Below, in pieces: positions 1,081 through 64,000 of a stretch of 64,000 nt of DNA; positions within the stretch are counted from its first letter, which is position 1; every line of letters starts with the position of its first letter. The notes under the pieces are model-generated. The model did not search any database. It was given only the letters and a program-made list of their open reading frames with translations, and was not told where the DNA came from. The position numbers were made by a program, and so were the translations under genes. Source of the stretch: Amphiura filiformis (Eukaryota); the NCBI RefSeq assembly GCF_039555335.1, contig NC_092646.1, forward strand, positions 36,987,911 to 37,051,910, written 5' to 3'.

Positions 1081-1492
1081 TTGTTGATAAATATGAAATG
1101 TGTTATTGCTGAATGCATTTAGTTGAACTTGAAATTATATGTTTATCACAAGAAAAGTGTTCAATAAAATTAATAGTCATGTAAAAAGGTAAATATAATA
1201 ATATTAGTCACATATGTTTTCAGATGCAGCATATCTTGGCATATAATTATAACGAGGGCTGAAATTTGAACAAATCGGGGTTTATTTGTAAATAAGCTAG
1301 TGTATGGGTAAGTGCACTACAGAGAAGTCTAAGAGCATTTGGGCTTAACAAGAACTGTCTTTAAAAAGGATAACGCTTTTGATGAAGATCATGTTTCATA
1401 ATTTTGCATTGACAGGTACTTGGAATTAGAGCATTTAACCCTGCCAACTCTTGAAAATCACTGATCTGAACTGAAATTGGAACATTCAGGTC

Positions 1493-1996
1493 TACACCAG
1501 GCACAAAAAGAAACTCGTCAGTTATATTCATCCTTGTTGTTCAATAACTTGATAATTTTGGATTATTCTGAAACATACATTTTGTTAATTGGACTTTTCT
1601 TTCTCATTTGACACCCTGATCGTGAACATTGAGCAAGAATTGACCAAGATATGCGCCTCCAAACTCTCAAACCCCAAAATGAAAACTTGCAATTTTAACG
1701 ATTCAATTGTGCTTGTTACACTGTGTGCTTTTATTGATTGGCCCGTGGTGCTTGTATGCAATACAACGATGCGTTCACATTGAAAATCGTTGAAAATGCA
1801 ACTTTTGATTTTGGGGTTTGAGGCTTTGGAGGCGCATATCTTGATCAATTCTTGTTTGTTTTTCATGAACAGGGTGTCAAATGAGAAAGCAAAGTCCAAT
1901 TAACAAAATGTATATTTCAGAATAATCCAAAATTATCAAGTTATTGAACAGCAAGGATGAATATAACTGACTAGTTTCTTTTTGTGCCTGGTGTAG
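1493..1996. mobile_element. Long foldback (palindromic) element of ~500 bp.
   Basis: The arms 1493-1740 and 1790-1996 are reverse complements (tacaccaggcacaaaaagaaactcgtcag ... ctgactagtttctttttgtgcctggtgta). The mirror ORFs 1585..1899 (-) and 1589..1783 (+) are artefacts of this palindrome. Confidence 0.8.
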
Positions 1997-2718
1997 TGTT
2001 TTTTGAAGAGTTGGTATGGTTATCACTAAGGCCTGGCAAATTCTCGCTATTAACCAACTATATCTTGCTTTTTAAAAAAGTTTCCAAGCAGTGCACTTAC
2101 TATAAAAATGTTGCTCTATGACATAAACATTCGCCAAATTCCATTAAAATGCAGTTCCAACTTCGTCAAAGTGCAGAATTCAACAGCATTGCAAGCACAA
2201 GGTCGAGTGAAAAAGCCATGCTTTACTCAATAAAAACTGACATTTCATTTCAAATGAGTTCAAGTTTAGGCCAAATATCATTATATTTATTGAATTACTG
2301 GAATATTTTGACTATAAAACATAATTCAAGGTCAAATTTTTGTCACTATTTTCTTCGACACCGGCCGGCCGCGTCGGCAGGTTTGTTTATTTATTGTTCT
2401 GGACAATAGAGGGCAGCAAATTTTTGGATTTTTTTTTTTTTTTTTGATTTTTCACATTTTCGGGCGTTTTGAAAGCTTCTTATGCCATTTTTCGTGGAAA
2501 ATCTCGCCTTTCTCGCTTTTCAACATTTTGGATCTCGTTTTTTACTTCAAAAAAATTGTTTTTTTTTTGCCGGGGCCTAGTTATCACTAATCTATCAATT
2601 ATTTACACATTGCATCTTTAATTCAACTGTATTTTTTTCAAACATAACAGGAATAGGTTTTATATTCATCTTCGTTTAAATATTTGTTTGTTTCCCTTTT
2701 TTTTTTTTTCATTTCTAG

Positions 2719-2905
2719 GTCAGAAGACGTGCCTTCACATCCACGGTGTATTCCCGTACATTTACATTCCCTACAATGGCACAGAACCATTGGATAAATA
2801 CACATTGCAGTTTGCAAACAGCTTAGATTTAGCCATCCAGGTATCCTTAGGGAGGGCATCATCAACAACGGAACATGTTTTCAAAGTATCCCTCGTCACT
2901 GGAAT
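2719..2905 (+). CDS. REV3L: REV3L-like exon (partial gene). Encodes GQKTCLHIHGVFPYIYIPYNGTEPLDKYTLQFANSLDLAIQVSLGRASSTTEHVFKVSLVTG-.
   Basis: Acceptor tttcatttctag|GT at 2717-18 and donor GGAAT|gtaagt at 2906. The peptide closely matches the N-terminal region of human REV3L as I recall it (GQKTCLHLHGIFPYLYVPYDG...STAQHVFKVSLVSGM). The exon ends in phase 2 and the next exon completes the ATG codon. Confidence 0.85.
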
Positions 2906-2930
2906 GTAAGTATGAACCATCAAATCAGCC

Positions 2931-3135
2931 TTAACCCCATGAGAACTACCTGCCGATTGGCCAAAAATAAGTTTACATTATCAATTGACCCAATCAGCAA
3001 CATTGTTAGAATAATTTCACCACACAAAAAAATTGAGGTGAATTATTTCAAAGCTCCATTCTGATTGGTGATAAAAAGTGAAAATATCATGTAATTGACC
3101 AATCAGAGGCAATGTTAGATCGGCAGGTAGTTCAG
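2931..3135 (+). mobile_element. TTAA-flanked MITE (piggyBac-like), copy 1, 3'-truncated at the duplication junction.
   Basis: Begins ttaaCCCCATGAGAACTACCTGCCGATTGG. Contains internal ccaatcag/ctgattgg motifs. Ends ...gatcggcaggtag. Family TIR is ~24 bp: TTAACCCCATGAGAACTACCTGCC / GGCAGGTAGTGCTCAAGGGGTTAA. Confidence 0.8.
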
Positions 3136-3236
3136 TTTGCAAACAGCTTAGATTTAGCCATCCAGGTGTCCTTAGGGAGGGCATCATCAACAACGGAACA
3201 TGTTTTCAAAGTATCCCTCGTCACAGGAATGTAAGT
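3136..3236 (+). pseudogene. Pseudo-exon: a duplicated 95-nt 3' portion of the 2719-2905 exon, including an intact gtaagt donor.
   Basis: Near-identical to 2811-2911 (QFANSLDLAIQVSLGRASSTTEHVFKVSLVTGM plus gtaagt). It is preceded by ...gtagttcag|, a potential acceptor. Its length of 95 nt is not a multiple of 3. Confidence 0.8.
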
Positions 3237-3255
3237 TTGAACCATCAAATCAGTC

Positions 3256-3460
3256 TTAACTCAATGTGAACTACCTGCCGATTGTCCAAAAAGAAGTTTT
3301 CATTATCAATTGGCCCAATCAGCAACATTGTTAGAATAATTTCACCAGGCAAAAAAGTTGGGGTGAATTATATGCAAAGATCCATTCTGATTGGTGATTA
3401 AAGTGAAAATATCATGTAATTGACCAATCAGAGGCAATGTTAGATCGGCAGGTAGTGCAG
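3256..3460 (+). mobile_element. Same MITE, copy 2, inside the tandem repeat.
   Basis: cttaactcaatgtgaactacctgccgattg ... gatcggcaggtagtgcag. Confidence 0.75.
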
Positions 3461-3561
3461 TTTGCAAACAGCTTAGATCTAGCCATTGAGGTGTCCTTAG
3501 GGAGGGCATCATCAACAACGGATCATGTTTTCAAAGTACCCCTCGTCACAGGAATGTAAGT
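3461..3561 (+). pseudogene. Second pseudo-exon copy, again with the donor retained.
   Basis: Third unit of the 325-bp tandem repeat, slightly more diverged (gatctag, cattgag, ggatcatg). Confidence 0.8.
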
Positions 3562-3580
3562 ATGAACCATCAAATTTTCC

Positions 3581-3802
3581 TTAACCCATGAGAACTACCT
3601 GCCGATTGGTCAAAAAAAAGGTTTTCATTATCAGTTGGCCCAATCAGCAACATTGTTAGAATAATTTCACCACACAAAAGAATTGGGGTGAATTATTTGC
3701 AAAGCTCCATTCTGATTGGTGATTAAAGTGAAAATATCATGTAATTGACCAATCAGAGGCAATGTTACATGTGTAGATTGGCAGGTAGTGCTCGGGGGGT
3801 AA
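3581..3802 (+). mobile_element. Same MITE, copy 3, with a complete 3' TIR.
   Basis: ttaacccatgagaactacctgcc ... gattggcaggtagtgctcggggggtaa. Confidence 0.8.
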
Positions 3803-6459
3803 GCCAGAAAGCAACATGCTTGAATTAAAGAAAAAATTCTACTGTTTGTATACTTATCATATGAAAAACTAAGCCTGATACTGTATCAGTATCAGTTGGC
3901 CGTTATAATAAAAAAAAAACACTGGAGGTTCACTGTTTTGGATCCTATGAGTAACAATCCATTATGGAGGATTTCCCATCATACACCTGGCTATGCAGAC
4001 TATTTACCCTAATGCCCCAGACAAGCGCACAGACACACTTTGCCACGGGGGTCTAGCTTGGCTGGCCAAGTTTCTGTGACCATGACTGTTTGCATGATGA
4101 TGCAATCGCATCACATGGGATACCTGCATGTGCAGATACTTTGTGAATTGAGCTCTTTTGATACTTGTTACGGTTAGGGTTAAAAAATGCAAAAACAAAG
4201 AAAGGCAAACCTTTTTTATGAAAGCAGTACCATTCGTCTAGCTTTGAGTTTCTTACATAAACCAAGACATCAGACTTGATGAGCACAAAAAGCACAAAAT
4301 CAATGTTACGTGAAAATTGTCATTTCTATAGTACGGTATATACTCTACATATCAAGATATGCCTTGCACTAGGGCTGCACGACACACACCGACACCGCCT
4401 GGCTAATAATTATTTGGTGGAGCAGAGACACTAAAATGAATACACGGGATCGATACACGTGAATTGCTATGCACGATTTTGATATCAAACGAAAATCGTC
4501 CGATACTGGGTTAGAAATTGATGAATATCTCCATAAATGAATTTTTCTCAAGAAACCAGATGTGGTCTCATACACTTGAAAATACGTGTTGAACAGATAT
4601 GATAGTCGCTAGAATGCGCTTTGAAAATTGGCCGTGCGCTTTGAACTCAAAATTTGACCATTTTATATTGCGTTGGTCCTACAGCGTGCAGCGTGTAGTA
4701 CAGCTGCACTCACTGTAGGCAGTATAAAAGTCGATGACCATTGAACTCAATGGGGTATACAAGCTTATTCACGCACAACCAAGATCGATTACCCGGCTAT
4801 TGTGAGTAGCCTTAGTTATGTCCCTCGACTAATTATTAGTTTTAAAGAGCTTTAAAGGTTTGAACCAAATGGCTAATCGTGGCTGTGGATTCAACCTACC
4901 ATGGTGATTCCTGCCATGAAGATATAGGGTCGATGACACTGTGCGGCATAGGCTTTTTTAGTAGTTGACTATTCGCCACCCAAATAGTCGCGGTTACGAC
5001 TATGGCCAACTATCAAAGGTCAAAATGTCCTAAAGTTCAAGCTTACTTTTTTTGTTCAGAATACACTTAAAAACACATTCACTGCATTGGTGTTCCTGTC
5101 GAAATGAGGGTTCTTCATAACCATAACAAATGAATGCAAATGGCGAACGTCACTAGTACGATCAGCACATCGGAACATTTTATTCACAACAATAAGGCTG
5201 TACGTATTTAAGCAAAAGGACAACATGACATTGAATATATACAGGAAGGAGTAATAGGTAAAGTTATAATTAACTTTCACAAAGATTTTCAAGGTGGTAG
5301 CACAAGTTCTTAGACAATTTTTAGCACCTTTAGTACCTGTCTTTACTTCAATTTTGTTGCTTGTAAGTTGTTGAACGTTCAGGAATAGTCGCCAATTGAC
5401 AATTATTAGTCGTAAGTCCCGACTATCGCCAAATAGTCACAACCTTCACTATTGGCGACTTAGTCATTCAGGCCTAGCTTGCACAACATGATGAAAAGCA
5501 CTGAACAAATTTTAAAGGCACTGCAAACTGTATCAAATTAAGTAATTGAAACCGAGGTATGTGACATTTTCTAAAAATATTAAAAATATAAAATCGCTAT
5601 TTAATTTACATTTTTGTGCTACTAATGGAAAGGGGCTTATGTGAACTTCGTAAAAGATAATCTGAAGCCAATAGCTTGTTGGATCTAGGTCTGTAATAGA
5701 CACATAATTTCTAATTCAACACTTCATCAGGGAAAAAAATATGACAATTGACACGTGTCGAAACTCGTAATGAGTTTTAAAAATGCTGAAAAAGTCAATA
5801 GATAAGCTTGAAATAACGCCGATATGAGTTAAGATTCGTTCTACTTCCGGGTTCTGGTCAACTTTGGGAGGTAATTTTCGACTTACCGATGAAAACATGA
5901 TCATACGGTAAGCTTATTTGGACAAAATAGCATTAGAAATTTCATTTTCTTCTCTTTTGATATGTGTCCTAAAGTGTTGAAGAAGGACAATTTATTTTGA
6001 CATGTCGGATTTAGGGTCATATCGACGATAATACGACAGTCGATAACAGGCATAGTTGGATCTGGGAGCAAGGCATTAGTCAGACGGGTGGCTTTAGGGT
6101 GTCCAAAATGGTCAAAAATACCTTATTTTTCAAAATCAGGGTGTCCACTTCCTATTCACTCCATTATAAAAATCAAAATTTTAGGGTATCCAAATTTAAA
6201 AACAGGGCGTCCAAATGACACCTGGACACCACTCTGGCTAATGCCTTGTCTGGGAGCTATTGCCAGCAGCCATTCCAATGAAGATCAACTTATTTATAGT
6301 TTATAAGTTGAATAGCCTCACTGCTCAAAATATTTATTGCATCATGCATGTGCTCTCAATCGATATCTCACTTCCTCTAAAAGCGTGTTCACATCTAAAT
6401 AGAATGTGCTATCTTCATGTAAATACTTAGGAATATTACTAGATACTAACGAAGGTATA

Positions 6460-15700: not shown

Positions 15701-15944
15701 CCCAATTCATGTATGCAGTTTTATTGGCCGGGCCAGCGAAAGACCTGTGCCTACCGGTCAATGATCTAGTGCTTAGTACCCAAAGGATCTAAGGTTTGAA
15801 TCCCGGGGTGCCAAATAACTTCTTTGTTCATCTTCTCTCCTTTTTTGTTCCTTCCTTCCTTTCCGATAGCCAAAAACTACTTTTAGCGTTTGTTTTAAAA
15901 TTGTTACATTATCATTTTATGCTTTTGTTTTTCTGTTCTTGCAG

Positions 15945-16019
15945 GCCACTATATGGGTATCATTCCAAAGAGCAGCAGTTTCTCAAAATATACTTCTACA
16001 ACCCACTTATGGTCAAAAG
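15945..16019 (+). CDS. REV3L: REV3L-like exon: (M)PLYGYHSKEQQFLKIYFYNPLMVK(R)
   Basis: Acceptor ttcttgcag| and donor AAAAG|gtaagt. Matches human PFYGYHEKERHFMKIYLYNPTMVKR. Phase is consistent with the flanking exons. Confidence 0.88.
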
Positions 16020-16479
16020 GTAAGTTTTTGCATATGGTATCCACATCTAGACTCAAAAGAGACTGAGAATTCTGGCATATTAATTATAGGTTAAGGAGGA
16101 TTTCGTGATCCTAGCACCCTCTTTATAAGACATTTTTCACGAAAAAAGCTTAATCTCAAAATTTCAGTTGAATCCGATTTTGCGTTTGTGAGTTATGCAT
16201 GATTATGTGTATCACACTGCTCCATAGGCCACTGTTGTAATTTCGTTCTGGTATACCAGAACAAAATTCAAAATTTGACGATATTTATGAAAATCCCCTC
16301 CAGTCCGAGCTCTTGCCCCCCCCCCCCCAGTAAAAACCCAAAATTGCAAAAATTGCTGCCAAAAGTGGAAATTGATTTTGTCCACCCTTGAAATTCACTT
16401 TTCCCCCTCAATGCCCCCCTCCCAAAAAAATCCTGGTGCCGCCACTGATAATGCATGCAAAGATTTCATTGAAATTATA

Positions 16480-19095: not shown

Positions 19096-19789
19096 AAACA
19101 TGTGTTAAAGGTAGGCCTATAATGGTAGACCTGTAAAAATACTTGTTTAGAGTCGGTTTTGAAAGTACGGTACCATAAAAGTGGAAAATTTTGCGCTCAA
19201 TTTTTTGATCTAAAATTTTTGTCATCCAAAAATGGAGACCCAAAATTTTCCAAATGTCTGGTCAGTCGGGTAAGGGCAACACAAAAATTTTGTTTGGGCC
19301 TAAAATTGTAACAGTCATCTGTATTGCTTGTAAAGTACATGTAGCACATTAAACATACATGAATGTGTGCGACAGTGCACATGCCGACAGAAGGGGTGTG
19401 TGTGCATATGTGTGAAATTGATTGCTAAATTAATGTGAATTTCCATGCAAGAGATCATTGATGATTCAATGAAGCTCTCTAATTTTGCATTGTTGGTAGT
19501 CGATTGTATCGGTATTTTGTCCATTGTGCAGAGTATATAAATATTGTACTGTAGATGCAGGTGATAAAATTAATTGTTTTCTTTGCCAATTTGAAGGAAA
19601 AAAATTTCATTTTTCATAGTATTTCATTCCAGAATATTTTTAAATTTTGTTAAATTTTAAGTGCTGTGATCTAATCCTATGTATGGTATTACAAACCGGG
19701 CTATTATGAGTCTCAGAGCCATGAATCTGTATTATTTCATTTCAGCATTTTTTACTTAATGTTGTAAATATTTGTTTGTTTGTTTTTAG

Positions 19790-19871
19790 AGCGGTTGATT
19801 TACTACAAACTGGGGCTGTTATGAATAACGTCTTTCAACCATATGAAGCACACGTTCCTTTCATCCTACAG
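19790..19871 (+). CDS. REV3L: REV3L-like exon: (R)AVDLLQTGAVMNNVFQPYEAHVPFILQ
   Basis: Acceptor tgtttttag| and donor CAG|gtgagt. Matches human ICELLQSGAIMNKFYQPHEAHIPYLLQ. Confidence 0.85.
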
Positions 19872-19890
19872 GTGAGTAGCTATTACACTT

Positions 19891-22130: not shown

Positions 22131-22444
22131 AATGGCTACCAAAGCAAGCAATAAGAGAGGTTGCAGTTATACGAAAGACTATTCTGTGCAATTTCCGTGC
22201 ATGAATACCATTTCGTAACATGTTTACAAGTGCCAAAACCCATCAGCTTCCCCTGGACCCCCACCAGGGGCCCTAAGGCGGGCTCCTGGACCCCAACCGT
22301 TCGCCGTGCGTGCTTCGCACGCGCACATTGTCACTAAATTTTTAGTGTCCCGCATTTGGACTTTCAGGGGTTGGCAGGTCTGCAGTCTGTTTGTTTCTGA
22401 TCACCATTTTTTAAACATTCATATTGTATTGCTTTCCTCCACAG

Positions 22445-22529
22445 TTTTTAATGGACTACAATTTGTATGGCATGAACATGCTCAATGTAGCTGCTGTCAA
22501 GTTCAGGAAAACAGAAGAAGATAAACAAG
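22445..22529 (+). CDS. REV3L: REV3L-like exon: FLMDYNLYGMNMLNVAAVKFRKTEEDKQ
   Basis: Acceptor ttcctccacag| and donor CAAG|gtatat. Matches human LFIDYNLYGMNLINLAAVKFRKARRKSN. Ends in phase 1. Confidence 0.85.
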
Positions 22530-24830: not shown

Positions 24831-25235
24831 CTATTCCAGTTGAAATCCTGACACCCATAGGAAGACATGACCTTAATCTCCCACACAGGGGGTGTAGATT
24901 GAAATTCACACAAGCTGTATGGGAGATTAAAGGCATTTCTTGCATAGGGGTTGTATTGATTTCAAGTGGAATCTCTTTGAAGGAACTAAAGTAAATTCTA
25001 AAAACTTGGTCAGTGATGTAATGAAACACTTGCCCGATGGCCCCAATGGCTCACCACCCAGTTCAAATCCATACACCCTCTAAGGAATACAAGACCTTAA
25101 TATTCCAAGTAGGGGAGTGTAGATTTCAAACGGAGTCACCCATTCTGGTAACCCAATTTGAAATTCACACTCCCTCTGTGGAAGATAAAAGCCATGTCTT
25201 CCATAGGGGGTGTAAAGATTTCAACTGGAATAGCA
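24831..25235. repeat. Family H, ~5 units, of the atgaccttaat-loop subtype.
   Basis: Starts 33 bp after the donor of exon 24663-24798. The ORFs 25037..25420 (+) and 24817..25029 (-) are artefacts. Confidence 0.8.
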
Positions 25236-26076
25236 TCAAGTGTGTAAAATTACAGGTTAATCCGGACAGAGGTGTAGGGCTGTTACTCAGAAACTCCTAT
25301 CCATGTTTAGGGGCTGATTTGACAGTTCGGGACCCATGTTTAGGGATTTTCTTTACCCAAAAAACGGCCGAGTTGACAGTTTTTGACCATTTTTTATCAA
25401 ATTTGGACCCATATATATAGGTATTTATCTTCTCAAATCTGGACCCATGTTTAGAGTTTTCTTCAAAAAAGTAACCCTCTAGAGCGAGCGGCACATCCCT
25501 GTATACCTTACTTACATGAGTACCCCACCCCCGGTTAATATGCCCAACAATAGGGTGATTGTCATTTTGAAGCCTACCATTAAAAAAATCAAAGAAGAGG
25601 TGAAAGAAAGATTTATGAAAGCAGTATCCTGAATTCCCCATATGCTTCTCCAGTTGAATAAAAATCAGCCAAGATGATCAGGTGTCCCACATCTACTAGT
25701 ACCAGTGCAATCATTTCCTGTGAAATTTACATTATCTTTTTGTAAATTTTGCATTTTCTTTCATTCCAATATACCACTGGATACCAGTTTTGTCATAATT
25801 TAAAGACCATAGGCTGAATAAACCAAGATGATCAGGTGTCCCATATCGACTAGTACCAGTGCAATAATTTCCTGTGAAATTTATACATTATCTTTACGAA
25901 AATTTGCATTTTCATTCATTTCAATATATACCACCGGATACCAGTTTTGTCATAATTTAAAAGACCATCGGTTGAATTACTAAATAATTGGATATGTTAG
26001 TGTTAGTCATTTTTAATTTTGTTATTTTTCTGAGTATTTTCATTTGCAGTTTCAAACAGCTGCACACACACATCGG

Positions 26077-34985: not shown

Positions 34986-35083
34986 GTCTCAATGGTTGGA
35001 TGAGGATGTAACAAGACAAAGTACCTGTGACTTAGAGGCAGATGCCGTCGCTGTCGATATATTAAATAGATTGGAAATAGAAG
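34986..35083 (+). CDS. REV3L: REV3L-like exon: (R)SQWLDEDVTRQSTCDLEADAVAVDILNRLEIE-
   Basis: Acceptor tgtttttcag| and donor GAAG|gtgagc. Matches human PQSTCELDVDAVAADILNRLDIEAQ. Confidence 0.82.
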
Positions 35084-37305
35084 GTGAGCATTGAATGATG
35101 TACACTGCAGATTTTACCTTTTTTGTTAACCCCATGGACTCCACTGCATTTCTTACCACGCCCCGATTGGTTAATCACATTATATATGATAATCTGGGTA
35201 ACCAATCAAAATAGAGCTTTTATATGTGACACGATCTGGTCCATGGGGGGCCAAAGGCGGCATTTTTGAAAATTTAGTTACTGTGATTATTATATTATAC
35301 ATAGGCTATCATTTACTGAAAACACCAAAGGTCTAGCATACTTGGTTCTTAAGTTATAAAGTTTTTTGATGTCTATTTTCTTATGTATTTTATTGTTTTT
35401 TGTTAAATATTTTTACCTTTACCTCAGTTTCAAATTTGCCGCCTTTGGCCCCCATGGACCAGATCATGTCACATATCTCTCTGCATTTTTAAGCTTAATC
35501 CCTTTCAGCCTGACGGGCTATTCTTACCATATGTGACCGTTCACTACGATTGAGCCGTAAATTCCTCCCCTGGTCAATTTAGTTTTATTTCATGTTTAGA
35601 AAATATATATATCATAAGCTTTAAAATGGTATATCATTTGACTTCAAACGATATCCAGAAGCAGGGTTATGGTTTGTTGAACTTTGCTCTTTCTACATGT
35701 GTCTCTTTTTCCATATTGCTGGTAAAAATATCAAACAGTCATAATTGGCGGTCATTTCAAATCATCCCCAAGTCAACGAGGTCCTCTCACCACTTGAACA
35801 GGATTTAGCCAAAGCAAACAAAGACCAGAGCTATTTAAAAATTCTATAGAAATAGGTAGAAGCTTATTATCCTCTTCAGCAATATGATTATTGATTGCTT
35901 TAAAAGATGTTTGACTAGCGCAATTAAAATCAGATACTTGTCACACCAACTTGAGGTACGTATGAATATGACCTTCATGCACATTTTACACTATAACTCG
36001 GAATACAATTTAGGACATTTACGGCTCATTCGTCGTGTACGGTCACATATCTGATATCCCTGATTGGCTCAATACATGATATAATCCACTTTTTAACCAA
36101 TCAAAATAGTTCTTCAGGTAATCTGGTCGGTAATGCCATGGGGTTAAAGCCTATAGTTTGCGTCTGACAATCAACTTCCTCACAGCCCATGATTGTTTAG
36201 TGGTATGTAAAAGGAAGGTTGATTCATCTGGTGCCTTCATCGAAGAAAAGGAATTGCAGAAAATGGCCAAAAATGATGGTACTTTAAATAGGCATTGTTG
36301 ATATGGTGGTTCAGGAAAGAAAGTTTCCAATTTACGACTAGGTGCAAAATTAAGCATAGAGCACAATGTTTTACCGTTGCATTCAGAAATTTCAATCATC
36401 ACAACAAGTTGTAAACTCTACACCCCCGGGATGATGTGTTTTGCGACACTCAAAAGGGGGAATGAGGTGGAAGTACCCTCTTGGAATAGTGCTTGGGGAA
36501 GTTGGGAAAAGGTTGATTGCCTTGTGCACTTTTATAGACAACATACATGTAGACTTGCAAAGTTGTGAAAAAACACTAAAAAAATGAAAAATGCACCTGA
36601 ACTATTTCATACAATTTGTGCATGATATTTTCAAAGATGCAGGTATCTCATTCAATGGTTTATGTAATAATATGTACCAGTTCTTTGAATAATGTAATCA
36701 GTAACAAAGGCTTTAAAGCCTAAATAATGATCACAAAATGGTTAAGTTAATCAGCAATGAATGAAACTAATTGGTATCTAACATATATTATGTTCCCTGC
36801 AAGCAAATCTTGTACCCTTCCCAGAATCCTTTGCAACATGATATACGGGCCTCATTTCACGTAACTTTGTACAGGTTCCCTTTGTTTTTATGTTGAGATT
36901 AGAATGGTTCAATATGGGTCAATAAGGGATGCACCATAAGATATTATCAGGGAAAATGTGCCTCACTGATGAGTAAAAAAATGTTTTCCCTACCCAGCTC
37001 TGTATGGACCCCATTGGAAATAAGTTGGCATATTTAGCCAACTTTATGGGTTATCCTGGCTCATTGACTTGGTTGTGTGTTTCTTGTGATGATGATTGAT
37101 TGCTTATTTGTTATTTTCTGTATTGTTGTCAATTTTGCCAAATAAATAATAAATAAATAAATATACATTAACATTGAAAAAAAAAATTGCCCCCAAAGGC
37201 AGTGAAAAAAAAATATGCCGCCTTAGGCGGCGAAAAAAAAAAATTCCGCCTGACACTAACTCCCTAGCCCCCAATAATATTTAATGGTGCGTCCCTAATA
37301 AAAAA

Positions 37306-37787: not shown

Positions 37788-38270
37788 TGTTCCATTTGAA
37801 ATCTATACACCCCCTGTGGAAGACATGACCTTAATCTTCCACACAGGGAGTGTAAATTTCAAATGGGATTGCCTGAATGGGCGATTCCATTTGAAATGGG
37901 ATTGCCTAAATGGTGATTCCAGTTGAAATTTACACCCCCTGTGGAAGACATGACCTTAATCTCCTACACAGGGAGTGTGAATTTCAAATGGGATAATCTG
38001 AATGGGTGATTCCATTTGAAATCTACACCCCCTGTGAAGGACATGACCTTAATCTTCCACACGGGGAGTGTGAATTTTAAATGGGATAGCCTGAATGGGC
38101 GATTCCATTTGAAATCTACACCCCCTGTAGAAGACATGACCTTGTCTTCCACACAGGGAGTGTGAATGGGGTAACCTGAATGGGTGGCTCCGTTTGAAGT
38201 CTACACCCCTTGCGCAGGAGAGAAAGATCATGTCTTCCATAAGGGGTATGGATTTCAACTGGAATAGCAC
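37788..38270. repeat. Family H, ~6 units with internal tandem duplication.
   Basis: Repeated gattccatttgaaatgggattgcct.aatgg. The ORFs 37964..38152 and 38049..38306 (-) are artefacts. Confidence 0.8.
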
Positions 38271-38425
38271 AATTGTCTGTTTTTTATGTTTCCTTCCTTG
38301 TTTCACAAAATTTTACTGACTTACTGTAATCGGTTTTCAACTAACACTGAAACACAAGTTGTCTTAGTTTGTTTTGTTTTCTGGCATACTAAAATTTATA
38401 TAAAAAAAGAATAAGCTAAAGTGGG

Positions 38426-38700
38426 TTATTCCATTTAAAATCCACACTACCCCTGTGGAAGATTTAGCTCAAGTCTGTCACAGAGGAAGTATCAATTTTG
38501 AATAGAATTGACAATTGGGAAACTTCCATTTGAAATACTCACTCCAGCTGTGGAAGATATTGGTAAAGCCATAATACAGGGGAAGTATGGGTTTCAAAAT
38601 GATTATCTCTGGCCAATTACATTTGAAAAACATACTCCCCCTTTGTACGATATTTCCAAAATCTTCCACAGGGGTAATGTGGATTTCAAGTGGAATAGCC
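38426..38700. repeat. Family H, 3 units.
   Basis: Same structure. The ORFs 38478..38723 (-) and 38508..38894 (+) are artefacts. Confidence 0.8.
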
Positions 38701-40367
38701 CAATACATGTACACAAAGTACAACTGGGAATGAATACTGTAAAACTACTTTTTTTTAATTTAATTTTTAATTTAATTTTTTTTATTTATTTGTTCGGGAT
38801 TTTGACAACCCTGGATAACCCAAGCTCTATTGAAGCTTATTTCCATTGGGGTCCATTTGAATACCGGGACGGGTTGGGAACAGTCAGGGGTTAACACCCT
38901 ACTCTTTTCGAAATTGGCTGTGAGATACATGTACAGGTATGGCTCTCTGCCACTTAATTTCGCTGGGGATATAATTTCGCTAATTTAATACACACTAATC
39001 TGACAGTTTTACATGTTTTGTTTGCTGAATTAGTGAAATTAAATATCAATGAAAATGGTAGTCCTTGGAAATGAGCAAAATCAAGAACTAGCAAAATTAA
39101 ATAGCTTTACAGTATATGTGATCTTATTGCACATTTAATGTGGAAGGGTGAGGTTATTGTCTGTTTGTTTGATGCTTGCTGTGATCAGTTGTCAACAGAA
39201 ATATTGTTTGATAAATTAGAATGTGAACTAAAGGGTGCAAACCACCAAATCAAGTTCCTATTCTTCTATGTGTTAAAAGGTATAGATAAATTGATAATTT
39301 TCTCATGATTAAAACTCCCTGGTTCATTCAAAACACCATTTTGCCTAATGTTTATGATATCTTCTACCATATAACCAATAATTTTTTGGTAGGTAAGCAG
39401 TAGTGGTGCACCATTTTGCCTAATGTTTATGATATCTTCTACCTTATAACCAATAATTTTTTGGTAGGTAAGCAGTAGTGGTGCATTGAAAACTACGTAA
39501 ACCCTATCAATCTTACAGCACACTGTCTTTATGAAGTGACATCATATGGTGGCGTAGATCCAATAACATACCTCAAATTTCAGAATGTAATCTTTTTATG
39601 CTTAGATGTTGAGAAAACCATCCACTAAAGTACAGTTATCACAAAAAAAATCAGGCATATCAGCATTCTTTTCAATTTTTTTTGTCATGAAATCAAGCCA
39701 GTATGGTTCTCAGAATGAAAACACTGTATTTTTTGGTATCAGCCATTTAGCTCTGATCCAATTTGGTGTTGTGAAATCTAAACATTTGGAAAGACTTCAC
39801 TAAATATGTGTACACAAAGTTGAAGCTGAAATAAATCAATAGGGCATCGCACATTGTAAGTTAGAAATAATATTGTCTGTTCTATGTTTGTTTGCTTGCT
39901 TTATGACTTGCTGTGTTAAGTTTTAATATTAACACAAGTAAAATGACCTGTACTCAATTTTTCAGAAAATAAATCTTGAATATTATTTACATATATACCA
40001 GTATTCAGATCATTACTTTATGTGAATTTTTTTATATGCCCATAAGGTACTTTTATGGGAAATGCACCATTGGGCACAATCAGGGTTGTAGCGACGGTGG
40101 CGGCGCTGGTCGGCAATAACCAGTTCAGCCTGACTGACCGGCACTCATGGGAATTAATGGGTCTTGCCGACCAGCACTAAAATGACAAATTGTCCTCAAA
40201 ACAGCTGTCAAATGCCATTACTGTCTTGAAGTAATTGGCATTCTGATTCAATTTTCTCTTAATTTTAGCCGGCACTAAACTTTGACTAGCTACAGCCCTG
40301 GCTGCACAATTTGACCCGATTTGTTTTTATGGGCACAATTTGACCCAATTTGTTTTTATGGTTGCAG

Positions 40368-40472
40368 GGGCAGTGGGTGCGAATCCTGGCTTGGTAGCTA
40401 TCTGGGAAGATGAGAAACAAAGGAGAGAGTTGCTGGGACAATTGGATGACTTAGTGCCGCCATCCTCACCAG
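40368..40472 (+). CDS. REV3L: REV3L-like exon: GAVGANPGLVAIWEDEKQRRELLGQLDDLVPPSSP-
   Basis: Acceptor tggttgcag| and donor CACCAG|gtgaga. Matches human GGNPGLQAIWEDEKQRRR. Confidence 0.82.
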
Positions 40473-40994
40473 GTGAGAAAACAGTTACGGGAAGAATCAT
40501 GGTGTAAATCAAGGCTTTGTGCTGTTTATACTTTGCTTAACTTTAGACTCATAACTTTGTGAAGATAGTGTGCACACAGTTTGGCGCAGCACCTTGCACG
40601 CAGTTGGGCGCAGGAATATGTATGTGACCAGATCTGATCCAATTTGGCTAAAGTCAGCAATAATGAAACTGAGATATAGGCAAAAAGTACTAGTGTGGAG
40701 GGATAAAAACCCAATAAGAAACATAAAAATAGACATATAAAATGTTCATAATTTTGCAACCAAATAGTCAAGAGATCTGGGGATTCAACATCAGTAAGTG
40801 TACTTAGGTACTGTGCAAGTTGGTAATTTTCTGACTTTGGCCTGAGTGGATCAGGTTGGGTCACATATTTTAGGAATGGTTATAAGAAGAGAAATAGGAG
40901 AGCCAGTAAGGAAGCCCTCATCCCAACCCTAAACCTATTCCTAAACATAACTTTGACGTAATCCTAATTCATATCCTAACCATGACCTAACCCA

Positions 40995-41232: not shown

Positions 41233-42190
41233 AAACGTATCCCTAATATTAACGGTAACCCTAACCTGAAATGCCCCAAACACTATCTTTAACCCTTTTA
41301 GGACTAATGACCTTTTGGATAAATAGTGTGTTTCCATCCATTGCAGTGTACCAATATTTGGGGAAGACTCAAAGATGCAGACAGATAGTGACTAAAAAGT
41401 CACAACAATATAGAAGGAACTAATCTTGAATTAATAAATAAACAAATAAATAAAAACATTCTAAATTAAAATTGGTCATGGAAAAACATTCCCGCTTCAA
41501 ATGAAATATCATAATATTGATAATCATATTTAGTTAGTAAAGTAAAAAAAAGGGTCATCAACATGAATAAAATATAAAGACGATTGAAAAAAAAACCACA
41601 CACAAATAACCATTACCGTGTTAAAGTGACAGGTCAATAGCTGTCAATAGATAACCAAATAAAGATACTGTGTCTTTTTGAAGTGTGCCAAATACAAGCA
41701 TGGTTGCTTGAATACGGTATAGTTAATTTTTCACGCTGGGTTAATTTTTGACGATTTTATCAATTCTGGACAGTTTAGTAGTTGTTTAATTTGTGTTTCC
41801 AAATTTTTTCACGTTATGTACTATGTGTAATAAATATTTTTGTGTGAATAAAAATTCGCGGCTGCCTGTTCGACCGCGAAAAGCACGAAAATTAAACTCT
41901 GCGAAAATTTCCGGCTAGACAGTAGTGGCTCAAATTACTGAAGTCGTCCAATTTTTCTTTCAAATATTGGTTTCTATGGGACAGGAAACTATTGGAAATC
42001 ATGGTGTGACGATATTAGAAAGTCACCCAATTATTTTCATAACATTGGTTTCTATGGTAAAGAAATGGTAACAAGTCACTAAAAATCTTCAAAATTCACC
42101 CAATTGGGCTATAAAATTATGCATTTGGCAACCTTGACATATAGTGATAATCCAAATCTGACCTGTACTGTACACACACACAATCATGGG

Positions 42191-42393
42191 GCTATTCCAG
42201 TTGACATCTATACACCCCCTATGAAATTAAAGGACATGATCTTAGTCTCACAGTCACACACAAGGGATGTAGATTTCAAATGATTAAGTCGCCCATTCAG
42301 ATTACGGTAACCCCATTTGAAATTCACACTCCCTGTGTGGAGGATTAACATCATGTCTTCCATGGTGTGTGTATGGATTTCAACTGGAATAGC
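42191..42393. repeat. Family H, 2 units.
   Basis: Same structure. Confidence 0.8.
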
Positions 42394-50117: not shown

Positions 50118-50202
50118 ACCGTGTTGATTTGCCCGATGTAGAGAGTGAGCTGCGTGGCAAGGCTAGACTACAGGAAATAATCCAAGACCACATGAATCAA
50201 CT
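50118..50202 (+). CDS. REV3L: REV3L-like exon: DRVDLPDVESELRGKARLQEIIQDHMNQ-
   Basis: Acceptor tgttttttccag| and donor CAACT|gtaagt. Similar to human ...KKFQKRLQEILKQ. Phase consistent. Confidence 0.75.
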
Positions 50203-52516: not shown

Positions 52517-52665
52517 GAAAGAAGCTGGTTGTGAAATGTTGACCCAGTCTATACTGGATGAAGAGTCACAGACCGATGATGACCTTAAATCACCATCTCA
52601 ACCCCAGGGTGCCGAATCACCTATTCCAAGCAGCCAGATAGATTTCCACCTGTCTCAAGAAAGAG
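52517..52665 (+). CDS. REV3L: REV3L-like exon: LKEAGCEMLTQSILDEESQTDDDLKSPSQPQGAESPIPSSQIDFHLSQER-
   Basis: Acceptor caccttaacag| and donor AAGAG|gtaaca. The frame stays open and the phase is consistent with its neighbours. No direct homology check was possible. Confidence 0.65.
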
Positions 52666-54739: not shown

Positions 54740-54895
54740 ACCTAATCAATTTACACATAATTTTGCTATTGCAAATGATTTTCCTACCAATTTGCGTTTG
54801 ATTTTACTCTTACAAATAATTTTACCTATCCAAATATTTTCACTTTTGTCTCAAACAGATGAAGATGGTCCACCAATGTCATTAACAATTGTAAA
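54740..54895 (+). repeat. Local duplicate of the exon-55215 acceptor region plus the first 23 nt of that exon (decoy acceptor).
   Basis: 54740-54885 is ~80% identical to 55095-55237, including ttttgtctc.aacag|ATGAAGATGGTCCACCAATGT. The copy then diverges and reaches a TAA within 30 nt. Confidence 0.8.
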
Positions 54896-55214
54896 TTTGT
54901 ATGTGTAACAATGAAAAGAATAAAAAGAAATTAAAGTCGGTTTAGTAAAGAAATTAATATTAGTAGTGTGGAAGTCCAATTTGCACTGAATTGGCTCTTT
55001 TAAGAGCAAAATTAAGTGCAAATTGGACTACACAAATTGGTCATTATAAGTGCAAATTCTTTAGGTAAAATTATTGAAAAAATTATTTTACCTTAACAAT
55101 TTACGTGTAATTTTGCTCTTGCAAATAATTTTCCTACCAATTTAATTTGCATTTGATTTTGCTCTTACATATTAATTTCACCTATCAAAATATCATCTCT
55201 TTTGTCTCCAACAG

Positions 55215-55328
55215 ATGAAGATGGTCCACCAATGTTAGTAAGAGAAGATACAGAGCCTGTGGTTGATGAAGATTTAGTGTATTCCTTTCTGGATTCTTCA
55301 CAGCCTTCAACAGCATCTCTGAAAAAAG
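55215..55328 (+). CDS. REV3L: REV3L-like exon: DEDGPPMLVREDTEPVVDEDLVYSFLDSSQPSTASLKK-
   Basis: Acceptor ttgtctccaacag| and donor AAAAAG|gtattg. Phase consistent. Confidence 0.65.
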
Positions 55329-56057
55329 GTATTGTGCTTTGTATATATGTGTAATGGTCATGTCATAGTAAGCAGTCACTCCTACTCTTTTCACCTTGAG
55401 GTTGAGACGTTACTGCATGTTTTATTTTAGGTCCAGTGGCAGCGCAACAGGGGGCATTGGGGGCAATAGCCTCCCCAAATTATAAAAATTTACACTTTTG
55501 GTACCAAAAAACAAATTCCTGCCACTGCCACTGTTAAGGTTGCCTAGCATTGAAACGTGTGCTGTTCTTGGAATCACAGTATAATAATTATGCTCACATG
55601 TAAAGGCAGCACAATTATTGTAATGATCTCTCGCATACAGAAATGCATTTTAACATCATATCAAATCACAAAGTGAGATGAGCTATAGTGTAGTGTATAT
55701 AGCTGGGACAAATATGCAGAAATCTGGTACCTGCTCACCCCTTAGGCATCCCTGGTCTGAATTTAAGGTACAGGTTACTTGAAAGACATTATTTGATATG
55801 TTCATAAGCTTTGTCGTAGTTCACTAAGCTTGAGTGGTAAGTTTCATGGCACCTATGAAGTGGTCCCAGCCAGACAATCGAGTTACAAGAGGCCAGAGTT
55901 GTATTATATCGCATGAATTAAAGATGTGCTCTCAGGTCCCACAAAAATACTGTACACACATTGTTATCCGATTCCTTGAAGTTCTGATTTTTATAATAGC
56001 TGATTAATATTTGACTTTGTTTATATTTTTCTGTCATTCTTAATATCTCATGATCAG

Positions 56058-56224
56058 ACCAAGAACTTGTTGATCTGCTACTTGAGCTTGCGCACGGTGA
56101 CACCCAAATGGAAGAACCAGAAGAAGGAAGCATCCTCTCCGCCAAGCTGCCAAGGATGATGGCGACACCCCTCTGGCAGCTAGCCAGGTGGCAGGAGGCG
56201 AGAGACGAAGAGGACAATGAGGAG
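56058..56224 (+). CDS. REV3L: REV3L-like exon part 1: DQELVDLLLELAHGDTQMEEPEEGSILSAKLPRMMATPLWQLARWQEARDEEDNEE
   Basis: Acceptor ctcatgatcag|. This frame runs into a TAA at 56228-30 unless the 38-nt GT..AG segment 56225-56262 is removed (see findings). Confidence 0.6.
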
Positions 56225-56262
56225 GTGTAATGGATGCCTTGGAGTCACTACACATGTCACAG

Positions 56263-56375
56263 GCCTGGGACGATGAGACACCAAAGAATGAGATGGAAGA
56301 TGGAGATGATGATGACGAGGAGGAGGTGGAGGATGAAGGGGGAGAGGAAGGAGATTTGTATAATACCCCAAATAG
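56263..56375 (+). CDS. REV3L: REV3L-like exon part 2: AWDDETPKNEMEDGDDDDEEEVEDEGGEEGDLYNTPN-
   Basis: Acidic open frame that ends at the classic donor AATAG|gtaagg. It joins in frame to part 1 only through a 38-nt excision. The alternative is a frameshift in the assembly. Confidence 0.55.
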
Positions 56376-57564: not shown

Positions 57565-57677
57565 TACTCTAGAAGAACTTGAAGATGCCTTGATATCAAT
57601 CACCAATGCTGATGAAGCACAGAAGTCTGCTTTACCTCAGTATGATGGACCTGGTGATGAAGAAGAAGAACCAGCAG
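57565..57677 (+). CDS. REV3L: REV3L-like exon: STLEELEDALISITNADEAQKSALPQYDGPGDEEEEPA-
   Basis: Acceptor tgatttcttacag| and donor GCAG|gtaggg. The same frame appears in the supplied ORF 57479..57730. Phase consistent. Confidence 0.7.
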
Positions 57678-58545: not shown

Positions 58546-59963
58546 TTGGTTTTTCCGTCCTGGTCCTCTAACCTGTCTTATTGTAAGTTCAGTGTGTTCT
58601 CGTTAATAACGTTACTTGAGTGCGTGTACATACTTTTACTGGCAGCGATCAACGTGCCGCATATGTACACGCAAGAAACTATGTTAAGCCAACGCAGCAC
58701 ACGCTGAACTTCAAAGCTAGTGCCGGTGACTCGAGGTAGATATACAGACTATAACCAATTAACCATGTTCACGCCAGAAAAGGTTATCATCCGATGAACA
58801 TTGGTTGATCTTTATTATACCATTTTCACCGATGTGGCAGTGACAGCAGTGTGCATTTCATTGGGTGCAGCTTCAAATGGCTGGTGTTTGCTCACAGTGC
58901 TGACGTACACATGCACATGATTAAAGATGCTGCATAGATGCGCAGACGAAACAGCTGCCTAAATGTGTTGACCTCACTGCCACACCAGGGTGAAAAATGG
59001 TATAGGTAATTACGTGTAATTATGATCAAATGAAGATATAGTTCCATTCACTTATGCACAAGCCTGTTATTAGTGGTTGCTTAGCAACAAAGTATACTCC
59101 AGGTGGGAACATATGGTCATTAGGCTGCTTGTTACTCGGTAATGAATTTAATTTGAATGAAGCTTCATTCACTTGATAAGCTTGCTTAATTCGATTAAGC
59201 AATCACTTAATCAAATGAATTTCTGTATGAATGACGATTAGTTAATAATGATCAATGAATAGATGTGCGTTCACGTCGGGAAGAACTCAGTTTATAATCT
59301 TCATGAAAAGGAAATCCCTTTGTGCGATCGGGGATACATGCAGAGGTTTTTTGATTGGCAGTTTGGGCCACAGAGGCAACTGAGCAGAGAAGTATAACGA
59401 TAAAACATAAATCTCATAATGCTATATAACCTTTTTTTTATATGCATAAATAGCACAAACGTTTGGAAAAGGTCTCAAACAAATAATGAAGACACTGATA
59501 CGATGATGAAATTGCATTAGTTGGGAAATATCTGCGTCGCAATGTGTTGTTTTGGTTTTTGGAATTTGACTTCAAAATTTACGACTTCATGACATTATCA
59601 TTGGAAAGCAACAAAAGATTTCAACAGTTTATATGGCATCATTCTTTAACTAGAGTTTGTTAAGCTTGTATGTGAAATAGCTTGAAAACAGCCTTGACCT
59701 AAAAAAAGGCGAGAGGTGCCATATTCAGGCTAAATTCAAAATTGATATAAAATGTTTGTTTTTTGATCGATTACAAAAATTAATTTTTGTAGTTAAAGGA
59801 AATTGTGTCTGTCAATCATTACACTACAATTTTTATTACTTGGGCTTTTTAATTTCTTTAAATAGTTTTTTACAATGATAGAGTGAATCCCCTGGCCCTC
59901 TATAATTACGCACAATGATCTCGCCACCTTAATGATTTCCTTATGTTTTTTTTCCTCACATAG

Positions 59964-62900
59964 CACTGGTACCAGTAGTGGAAGTGGAAACCAAGAGAAG
60001 AAGAAATATTCAAAAGCCAAGCAGGTACCTTGAAGATGATGACTTCTACTTTGTACCCAGTATTAAACCAAAATCAGCACAAGGCAAGAAGAAGCAGCGA
60101 AAGAAAAACATCAAGAAAAGCAACTTTGATACACCATCAACTAGCGGTACTGATGCAAGCAATAACAGCCCAAAAGATAAACTTTTGAAAGAGTTTGTGA
60201 TCAAGATAACGGATCGATTCGATGAGGAGATGATCAAAAAGATCCCGTACTGGAATCCAGTTTTAGAAGTTAGAAAATTGAGTCATGATTCAATCGATGA
60301 GTTTGTAGGGTTTGGACGTGCGAAGGAAGGGCAGGACAAGGACGACGGAACAATATGGGGTGTAAAACAGGATTCTTTAAGCAAAGGAATGGTCAAAAAG
60401 ACTCTGGGTATAAAAAGCATCAATGCAACAACTCAAGACTTGTTGAGTAAAGCGCCACCTTCCCATAAGAATCAGACATCTTCTAGCAAGAAAGTGCCAG
60501 TGAAAAGAACTCTAGGTATTAAGCGTAGAAGAGAACCTAGCGGCGACGCCAGCGATTCAAGCAACACAAGCGCCGCTAGCCACTACTACAGCATGCGCAC
60601 AAAACGGGAACGAGTCATGTACAGGGAAGATGATGACTTTGACGAGATATTGGAGCTGACTGATTATAGCAGGACACGCGGCGATGAAGTCGACGATGGG
60701 GATGATGATGATGATTCCGATGTCGATAGGGACTTGAAGTCCTGGAAGACGTACGATAGCCCAATGCGATATAAGCAACCTTTGGTGATTTTGAACAAAG
60801 CAACATTGTCGCAAACAATAAATTCAGGAAAAGGTAGAAAAAGCACGATACAGCATACAAAATTCATATCGAAACTGTCTAGCGGTAGAAAACATCAACA
60901 AAAGGAAGAGAGCGTTCTTTCCGATTTGTCTATGGAAACCGATAATGATAGTGCAGTTGAGGTTATCGAAGAAACCACCTCGGATGAAGATGAAATTACA
61001 GTACCTGAGGATGATATGGCTATGAATAATGTACCATTAGTTGGATCAAAAGAGATGGTAGATAGTGACCCAGTTAGCACTGGAAGTGAGGAGTGTGATG
61101 TTGTGTCGCCCACATTGTTCGAAGATACAATCATTTCCCCTCAAAGTACTGCTGAAGCTAGCAGGGGCGAGCAGGAAGAGTCGATGGGTGTAAGCTCACT
61201 ACCGGAGAAAAAGGACGGTGGAAATGCTGCAGCACCAAGCCAAGATACCAGCGATATAAATGATAGCAAATTATATCCCATCCATATGGGAGATAACGCT
61301 CGTAGTCGTATTTACAGCTCGTTGCCTGCAAGTCCAACGAGAGAAGGAATGCCGCCATTCCGTCGCGGTTGCAGGACTCGCGGTGGTAAACGACACTTTG
61401 GACAAGCGCCATCTAGGGCCAGCTCTTACTCGCCGGATCAGTGGGGTCCACCAATGTTCAGAATAGGTACGGATGAAAGTAAAGAAGAATATTGTGATGT
61501 TATGTGGAGGCTGTCGTATTTCTCCCCGCTTCGCCCGGATCCAGAGCCCTCTCCACCGCGGGCTTGGTCACCAACGCGCCTAGCAATGAACTCAGAAGAC
61601 AACGTGCCTTGGATTAGTGGAAATAATTACGATGCAAAGAAAAATGGTGACATCCTGACAACCCTTTCTTGCTTTGACAGTGATCAGATGATGCAAGAGA
61701 TGGCCGAATTTGGACGAGATCATGATCTCTTCCAGTCCTTCACTTGTCAACCCAACGAGAACATTGAAGTGACTGGAGAGGGCGCTAGTAAGATTGTGCC
61801 TGAAGATTCAGAGGCGACGAGGAGTAAAGACACAGCAGAAACATCGATGGAATTTGATGCGGTACCTGAATCGCAATCTGAAGAGGATGAGAGCACAGGA
61901 GGAGAAGTTAAAACAACTACTCTATCAGTGGGTGAACCAAATAACAATATCGGTTCTGGCTGTGATGAGAAGAATCCATCAACTTACGCTGGAGAGTCTA
62001 AAGTGTCTGATCTGACATCGCAGCAAGATGACGATGCTGCAGCTAAGAAATATGAGCCCATTAAGCCTCTTGAAATGAGAGGGGACCCATCGAAGAAAGT
62101 CGTCGGGACAGTGCATCCAACTCAACATGTGAAATCAACAGAGAATGAACTTGAAAGGCAATCTTCAGAAGAAAGTGATAAAGTACTGTTTGATTTAGAC
62201 CAAGGTAAAATTGAAACGGCAGCGATAAAAACGAGGGCAGACAGTCTGTCTGCTGGACTGAAGTCGCCACTTGATGCGGATCCAAATGTCTCTATGGTGC
62301 CATCTTCTAATCCGATGAGTTTGATGTCGCCGACAGGTCATCCATCGAGATTCTTTCCAGTACTAAAACAAAATGATGCTATTGCACCAAAAGACTCAAC
62401 TTCTTTAAATGACATTCATGACACAAATACCTCTGTAAGTGGAGGAGAAATGAAAATGAGTTTACAAGAAGATGAAGTTCAGAATCGGACAGATCCACCA
62501 GCAACTACAGATAGTCAGCAAAGTGATTCCTCATCACCTTTGACCCCAGGTCAAAGGCAACAGGAAACAAGACACTCACCGACCCCCAACTCCCCATCAG
62601 ACTCTGAGGATTCTTCTAACGAAGGCAAGAGCACCTCAAGCACTCCTGTAGACTTTGACTTTCTGTCTACCCTAGATGAGAAGACGGACAAAACCAGTGA
62701 TGAAATAATGAGTAATGTTGGTAGTACTTCAGTAGGCAATGAGTTGTCCACCGAACCAGCATCTGGTGATTTAAGCGAGGTAGCAGATGTGGAGCATTCT
62801 GATGGGACTGAAACTCCAGCAAGTAATGTTGTTACACCTTGGAAGACTTTCTCCAGCAACTTCATGACACCAGTTAAAGCTGCTAATGGGGATTCATTGT

Positions 62901-64000
62901 CTTTCGGATCAAATGAGGGAGATAGTATCGCAGGATCTAAAAGTATTAATTCGGGTATAGCGCAAGGTGACGATCAAAGTAAACCTTCAGAAACATTTAC
63001 AGGTGATGCTTTGACCTCAGCGAAAGCAGATGAAGGTAGCTTGAACAAAGATGTTGCCACTTTTGAAAGACCTCAAGCAGGTCTGTCAGATATGGAATAT
63101 AGCAGTAACTCAGGGTGCCAGACATTCTCATCAACTGACGACATCATGACGCCAGTGAAAACTCCTTTGGAAACATGTGCAGATGATGTTTTGACCACAG
63201 TGAAAGCAGATGAAGGTAGCTTGAACAAAGATGTTGCCACTTTTGAAAGACCTCAAGCGGGTCATTCGGAAATGGAAGATAGAGGTAACTCAGGGTGGGA
63301 GACATTCTCCTCAACTGACGACATCATGACACCAGTGAAAACTCTTTTGGAAACATGTGCAGATGATGTTTTGACATCACTGAAAGCAGATGAAGGTAGC
63401 TTGAACAAAGATATTGCCACTATTGAAAGATCTCAAGCTGGTCAGTCGGAAATGGAACATGGAGGTAACTCAGGGTGGGAGACATTCTCCTCTACTGATG
63501 ACATCATGACGCCAGCAAAAACTGCGCTAAGTAGTGAACAGACTGCTGTAAATCGTGAACAATCCTTACCGGATTCAGACGAGGAAAATGCTGTATCACA
63601 AAGTACTAAATTAGATGTGGTGGAAGAAACAACTCTAACATGCAGCTCCAATATCAGCGATAGCAAGGATACAGTGCTAAAGTCATCATTGCCTATTTCT
63701 GAAATTTCGAAAGTTGAAATTACAAATGATGCTGTTGCCATGGAGAATGATCCAAGTGGCAAATGTGAAAATGTATCAGAGTCATTATTACCAAGTTCTG
63801 GTAAAACACAGGAAGTTTGTGCTGTGGAGATACATGAGGAAGGTCAATTGGACAAAGGGTCCTCTTTGTTAGGTTTAGACTCTAAAATTCAAAAACCTGA
63901 GATGCCAAATTCGGAACCCTTACAGGAGGCATCAGAAAGTGATGATTTTAGTCAAGAAAAAATTGCTGCAAGTGAAAAGGATCTGGATCCAGCAGGCATG
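59964..64000 (+). CDS. REV3L: REV3L-like giant exon, 3'-partial. More than 1340 codons are open to the window end. The product is a Ser/Asp/Glu-rich, low-complexity central region.
   Basis: Acceptor tttttttcctcacatag| at 59962-63. A single frame stays open for ~4.04 kb in sequence that is otherwise stop-rich. It joins in phase 1 to the previous exon. This is the counterpart of the ~4 kb exon known in vertebrate REV3L. The only minus-strand ORFs here are short antisense shadows. Confidence 0.85.

Follow-up and report, generated by a model that had tools for sequence, protein, structure and literature searches.

The window analysed in this work, a stretch of 64,000 nucleotides from the brittle star Amphiura filiformis (RefSeq assembly GCF_039555335.1, contig NC_092646.1, positions 36,987,911 to 37,051,910), carries, on the forward strand, the 5' half of REV3L, the gene for the catalytic subunit of DNA polymerase zeta. 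In tblastn searches, Pol zeta proteins were matched by N-terminal exons at about 2718-2906, 15913-16020, 19743-19874, 22442-22510, 35002-35088 and 40361-40486. Joined and used as a query, these exons retrieved 96 proteins, the best of them annotated as DNA polymerase zeta catalytic subunit or as REV3L, with identities among the best matches of 73% for Lytechinus variegatus, 69% for Branchiostoma and 62% for Mytilus. The Pfam domain POL3_N was recognised with a score of 94.6 bits (cut-off 24.1, E=5e-27). The C-terminal polymerase domain and the REV7-binding region would lie past the 3' border of the stretch analysed. The likeness to other animal REV3L genes consists of the POL3_N domain, of N-terminal exons that are 60-73% identical to those of sea urchin, mussel and lancelet, and of the short elements D..LVDLL, ESL.MSQ..W and PQ.DG..DE, which follow one another in the same order. 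The Amphiura gene differs from its relatives by one frame break as assembled, and by a very divergent central exon, for which there are 2 protein matches in 1.84 billion representatives.

Exons were located by tblastn with orthologues, an AG..GT exon finder having given only two useful candidates. A human sequence among the tblastn probes served only to locate exons; the conclusions rest on database proteins. Exon borders were then set by reading the splice sites for 40368-40472, 50118-50202, 52517-52665, 56058-56375, 57565-57677 and 59964 onward, which gives the following exons:

40368 to 40472, forward strand: REV3L exon, GAVGANPGLVAIWEDEKQRRELLGQLDDLVPPSSP, in the phase-checked model
50118 to 50202, forward strand: REV3L exon, DRVDLPDVESELRGKARLQEIIQDHMNQ, in the phase-checked model
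52517 to 52665, forward strand: REV3L exon upstream of the break, reading ..KEAGCEMLTQSILDEESQ..HLSQER and ending in phase 1 with a G
56058 to 56375, forward strand: REV3L coding exon with an assembled length of 318 nt, delimited by translations, the phases of the flanking exons and orthologue alignment of the whole exon
57565 to 57677, forward strand: REV3L exon downstream of the break, reading (S)TLEELEDALISITNADEAQKSALPQYDGPGDEEEEPA
59964 to 64000, forward strand: giant REV3L exon whose frame stays open up to the end of the window, over 1345 codons (4037 nt in the window)

The PQ.DG..DE element of exon 57565-57677 aligns to the vertebrate sequence IPQLDGTADE. Human REV3L also has a giant central exon. 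That of Amphiura maintains an open frame over 1345 codons, from which it follows that selection still acts on the gene and that it is no decayed pseudogene. The spliced peptide and the giant exon, scanned together against Pfam, gave no match. When the first part of the giant exon served as query in an exhaustive HMMER search, 2 proteins came up, one from this very locus (XP_072019148.1) and one from a relative (55% identity, phmmer), and a word-index search with the acidic exon (56058-56375) and the giant exon returned a single fragment (P0001) that does not include the region of interest. The relative is the only one detectable for the giant exon, at 48-55% identity depending on the method. 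Its 5.3-kb contig (L001; GCA_013332995.1, JAAUXV010182626.1), which encodes P0001, extends only 438 nt upstream and does not include the orthologous exon; its giant exon is called as a pair of neighbouring ORFs that share one frame, 439-3357 and 3376-4971, parted by an in-frame stop.

The exon at 56058-56375 cannot be read through as assembled. It is preceded by a CAG acceptor (AG at 56056-56057), enters in phase 1 (G/AC, Asp) and exits in phase 2 (..AAT AG/T, Ser), so that its in-frame length should be 319 nt (or 316 nt) instead of 318 nt. The frames at both ends are imposed by the neighbouring exons: exon 52517-52665 ends in a single G, which forms a codon for D with the AC at 56058 and hence forces frame A (56060+3n) at the start, and exon 57565-57677 begins with a T that makes Ser with the AG at 56374-56375 and hence forces frame B (56059+3n) at the end. 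Frame A reads QELVDLLLELAHGDTQMEEPEEGSILSAKLPRMMATPLWQLARWQEARDEEDNEEV and is terminated by the TAA at 56228-56230; frame B reads ...AWDDETPKNEMEDGDDDDEEEVEDEGGEEGDLYNTPN and runs to the donor TAG/GTAAGG at the exon end, 56375. Our translations thus agree with the first-pass annotation, which had described a gene frame starting at 56058 and meeting a TAA at 56228, and a second frame continuing from 56263 to a donor at 56376. Both flanks of the break align with orthologues as a single continuous exon, and there is only one frame break. The features that surround it are these:

56218 to 56230, forward strand: obligatory frame-change interval, TGAGGAGGTGTAA, between the last frame-B stop (TGA, 56218-56220) and the first frame-A stop (TAA, 56228-56230)
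56225 to 56262, forward strand: GT..AG segment of 38 nt, GTGTAATGGATGCCTTGGAGTCACTACACATGTCACAG, coding in frame B as (G)VMDALESLHMSQ
56230 to 56232, forward strand: start codon of the RefSeq model, an ATG inside the 38-nt segment that overlaps the frame-A stop as TAATG (56228-56232)
56242 to 56268, forward strand: codons for ESLHMSQAW, the window's copy of the REV3L motif E[ST]L.M[ST]Q..W, identified by motif scan and MAFFT

As assembled, the six joined exons contain 76 stops. When the 38 nt at 56225-56262 are excised there are 0 stops in the 1589 codons of the six exons, which bears out the earlier statement that removing this GT..AG piece joins the two frames. Adding one base after 56226 leaves 0 stops in 1602 codons, and dropping one GT from the GTGT at 56225-56228 is an equivalent repair that can be read straight from the sequence. 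It had also been remarked that all remaining exons are intact, and this holds for the exons within the window. Two readings had been offered for the break, namely an ultra-short intron and a frameshift or 1-nt indel. The second is the one that stands, on the strength of the continuous alignment to orthologues, the repair by a single added base and the error rate of the assembly, while the first is at odds with a conserved motif, with the splice signals and with the lengths of the gene's introns.

The RefSeq annotation breaks the gene at the same point. XP_072019148.1 (P0098), named 'uncharacterized protein [Amphiura filiformis]', matches the window at 100% identity in 56230-56373 and in 59963-64000, has MDALESLHMSQAWDDE as its N-terminus, and uses the same junctions, 56375/57565 and 57677/59964, as found here. 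Gnomon thus takes 56230-56375 for exon and cuts REV3L in two where the frame breaks. Being built on the same assembly, the model provides no independent evidence on the DNA sequence. It ends at residue 1515, about 83 residues beyond the end of the window and well before the polymerase domain; its last ~30 residues do not align to the ORF of the relative, which runs for about 200 residues further, suggesting either another break of the frame or a wrongly modelled end. The protein searches made did not bring up a second A. filiformis sequence or a transcript-derived protein spanning the break, but the word-index protein search missed XP_072019148.1 itself despite 100% identity over ~640 query residues, a protein that the exhaustive search did find, and same-species negatives from the word-index search are therefore weak.

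The main evidence on the nature of the 38 nt is what they encode. Frame B is open from 56221, so that the whole segment is open and translates as VMDALESLHMSQ, a point absent from the first-pass annotation. The peptide of the continuous exon was compared by BLAST with the retrieved orthologues, scanned for motif patterns, and aligned with MAFFT to 19 orthologues together with both versions of the window, that is with and without the 38 nt. Scanning for E[ST]L.M[ST]Q..W gave 24 regex matches, 23 of them credible in REV3L orthologues and one (P0055) doubtful, as it looks unrelated. A recognisable D..LVDLL lies 28-72 residues upstream of the motif in 16 of the 23 orthologues, and the order in the window, DQELVDLL ... 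ESLHMSQAWD, is the arrangement of the orthologues. The motif ranges from sponge (Corticium, P0029) to vertebrates (the fish Puntigrus, P0011, and the vertebrate-type P0092), with variants such as ESLEMSQAVW, ETLEMSQVVWD, ETHEMTQAW, ESLAMSQ (sponge Corticium) and LSLVMSQRWD (vertebrate-type, Puntigrus). The codons for ESLHMSQ (56242-56262) fall wholly within the putative intron, and in the MAFFT alignment the version lacking the 38 nt is gapped precisely over the best-conserved columns. The comparison with orthologues that had been proposed as a check thus comes out in favour of a continuous exon whose 38 nt encode a conserved motif. Because the conserved peptide is in the frame of the downstream exon, the segment reads as exon and not as intron, and 56225-56262 is ordinary coding sequence of REV3L.

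As a by-product, these alignments bring out a short conserved motif of REV3L, D..LVDLL ... E[ST]LEMSQ..W, with an SQ site. In the otherwise disordered linker of the protein, both in the window (56058-56268) and in P0008-P0096, one finds D..LVDLL..L, an acidic run and E[ST]LEMSQ..W(D); the pair of motifs, with its SQ site, extends from sponge to vertebrates, and in the scans made neither element fell under a Pfam model.

The 38 nt being coding, the break calls for another cause, and we consider it probable that it is a residual consensus error, in an assembly based on Nanopore R9.4.1 reads whose source genome is highly heterozygous. Under this reading, 56058-56375 is one continuous REV3L exon in which the 38 nt are included and encode VMDALESLHMSQ, with a net deficit of one base within 56218-56230 (TGAGGAGGTGTAA), due either to one missing base or to one surplus GT in GTGT. 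The exon would then measure 319 nt (or 316 nt) in the animal, with the uninterrupted reading ...ARDEEDNEE(x)VMDALESLHMSQAWDDE.... The published A. filiformis genome, which we take to be the RefSeq assembly used here, was built with Flye from Nanopore R9.4.1 reads called with Guppy 2.3.5, and polished with two rounds of Racon using nanopore reads and two using Illumina reads (PMC11310086). Its QV of 31.6 corresponds to 6.8e-4 errors per base, or about 1 per 1,460 bases, and its heterozygosity is 3.22% (PMC11310086). By simple arithmetic, this QV predicts ~0.2 errors for an exon of 318 nt and ~3 for the window's coding sequence, and one residual indel is thus unremarkable. Some observations do speak against a consensus error. 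There is no long homopolymer, the classic context of nanopore errors, at the site, where the local sequence, GAGGAGGTGTAA, offers no more than GG and GTGT; no frameshift occurs in the adjacent 4037-nt exon, so that indel errors are not dense locally; and two rounds of short-read polishing would be expected to clear many single-base indels.

The main rival to a consensus error is a real indel, that is, a sequenced haplotype carrying a true REV3L frameshift, be it a heterozygous loss-of-function allele or a small haplotype-specific indel, in which the 38 nt would still be exon. With a heterozygosity of 3.22% small indel polymorphisms must be common, and the nature of the site, the use of short-read polishing and the otherwise intact gene, which fits a young or heterozygous lesion, are all consistent with it. 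Nevertheless, a conserved single-copy repair polymerase rarely carries a frameshift in any one haplotype, several coding errors in the window are predicted from the published residual error rate alone, and the downstream open frame of 1345 codons bespeaks ongoing selection. The assembled sequence alone does not separate the two; we regard a real allele as unlikely and favour the assembly error.

The ultra-short spliceosomal intron, whose removal would give ...DEEDNEE/AWDDE..., has in its favour its GT (56225-56226) and AG (56261-56262) ends, a length of 2 mod 3 and the stop-free CDS that its excision yields. The GT and AG ends are uninformative. The exon 56058-56375 contains 13 frame-restoring GT..AG pairs of 2 mod 3, i.e. 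12 besides this one, and when 3000 single-base deletions were simulated at random positions of the neighbouring 4-kb exon, a frame-restoring GT..AG piece of 38 nt or less was at hand in 84% of cases and one of 65 nt or less in 99%, which places the GT..AG ends at chance level. Against splicing weighs first of all the loss of the conserved in-frame ESL.MSQ motif that excision would entail. Moreover, the splice signals of the segment look the weakest in the gene. The putative donor, GAG/GTGTAA, looks weak; the real REV3L donors here are of the GTAAG or GTGAG types. A poor polypyrimidine tract had been noticed in the first-pass annotation: the pyrimidine fraction of the putative acceptor (-20..-4) is 0.53, the lowest of seven, the real acceptors having 0.59-0.82. 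By eye, the 38 nt show no clear yUnAy branch site. The length is also out of keeping with the gene, in which the five consecutive introns measured here have 1189, 2286, 2314, 3392 and 9645 nt. Finally, XP_072019148.1 retains the segment from 56230 as exon and no 38-nt splice is modelled. A search for other small introns that would spare the motif yielded only a 20-nt piece and two purine-rich pieces (125 and 128 nt, pyrimidine fraction 0.18), none of them credible. The intron is therefore contradicted by the evidence and the frameshift alternative supported, and we consider it most improbable that this segment is spliced out.

This conclusion is in line with what is known of very short introns in annotations. 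Among reviewed or validated RefSeq records, 170 GT-AG introns do not exceed 40 bp, of which only 15 could be validated, and introns of this size can make up for defects of an assembly (Piovesan et al. 2015, PMC4675715). The present case resembles such annotation micro-introns in that an intact gene has one break whose frame is repaired by a tiny GT..AG excision, and in that the Amphiura genome, a long-read draft, has a residual error rate that can be measured; it differs in that RefSeq split REV3L, with a second model at ATG 56230, instead of introducing a micro-intron. Bona fide ultra-short introns are reported in animals, with 43-65 nt in human (PMC4463651) and sub-30-bp examples in myxozoans (PMC13644364). 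The 38-nt candidate shares with the examples quoted in those two reports its shortness and its GT-AG termini, but it holds a conserved in-frame motif and lies in a gene whose measured introns exceed 1 kb.

A last group of explanations would have the frame change handled during expression, either by -1 ribosomal frameshifting or by termination-reinitiation at TAATG giving two REV3L polypeptides. The frame-A stop at 56228 and the frame-B ATG at 56230 do overlap as TAATG, and in RefSeq the downstream part is annotated as a protein of its own, which this ATG opens. Termination-reinitiation at UAAUG operates in influenza B M1/BM2 and calicivirus VP1/VP2, with the same overlapping TAATG and a start in the -1 frame. 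The Amphiura site differs from these viral ones by the absence of a TGGGA-type motif, by its location in an animal nuclear gene behind a very long upstream ORF, and by a Met that falls in a stretch aligned to orthologues as internal sequence. Indeed, no TGGGA (UGGGA being the core of the 18S-complementary motif) is present in 56100-56230, the 130 nt upstream, and we know of no reinitiation after a long ORF (~470 or more codons) in animal nuclear genes. As for -1 frameshifting, frame A contains no X XXY YYZ slippery heptamer, and the MFE of the downstream 100 nt, -16.5 kcal/mol, is no better than that of shuffled sequences (z = +0.69). Both mechanisms were rejected for absence of their signals. 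By our estimate from composition, a TG is expected after ~6% of TAA, and vertebrate orthologues have a Met near the same alignment position (EEMELSL...), so that this residue may be an ordinary internal one; we regard the TAATG overlap as due to chance, and recoding as scarcely plausible. We attach as little credence to a fixed, real frameshift with two TAATG-coupled polypeptides (TAA 56228 / ATG 56230), or to a regulated exonic intron removing ESL.MSQ.

The feature is thus an artefact-level finding and not a real intron, and its value lies in the caution that it prompts. In a nanopore-derived invertebrate genome, a one-base consensus error can mimic an ultra-short intron in a conserved gene, given that frame-restoring GT..AG pairs are nearly always present by chance. 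The same defect splits REV3L in RefSeq and leaves its downstream part, of 1515 residues, labelled as an uncharacterized protein; correction of the site would give a single continuous reading over the junction.

The window also contains several repeats. A 325-bp tandem repeat at 2806-3767 has three copies with 92% matches and includes, of one N-terminal REV3L exon, the 3' half (QFANSLDLAIQVSLGRASSTTEHVFKVSLVTGM), after which the consensus of the repeat continues with GTAAGT, the exon copies lying at 2718-2906, 3133-3231 and 3458-3556. The end of this exon, apparently with its donor, is present three times, which could be a real duplication with alternative donors or an assembly artefact. In the giant exon, an in-frame tandem repeat of 180 bp (60 residues) at 62990-63523 likewise has three copies, with 90% matches, and translates as ..ADEGSLNKDVATFERPQAG.SEME...NSG.ETFSSTDDIMTPVKT.LETCADDVLT... 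The introns of REV3L carry an interspersed family on both strands, at about 19897, 20086, 26240 (reverse strand), 30912 and 37804, with the translation ..EIHTPPVEDISKIFHRGSVDFKWNS.. and with similar ORFs at 25025-25417, 38010-38891 and 42083-42280; it is probably the remnant of a transposable element. Two further intronic ORF fragments upstream of exon 56058-56375, at 54741-54905 (..SPTDEDGPPM..) and 55157-55351 (..SQTDEDGPPM..), are similar to each other and are probably copies of another repeat.
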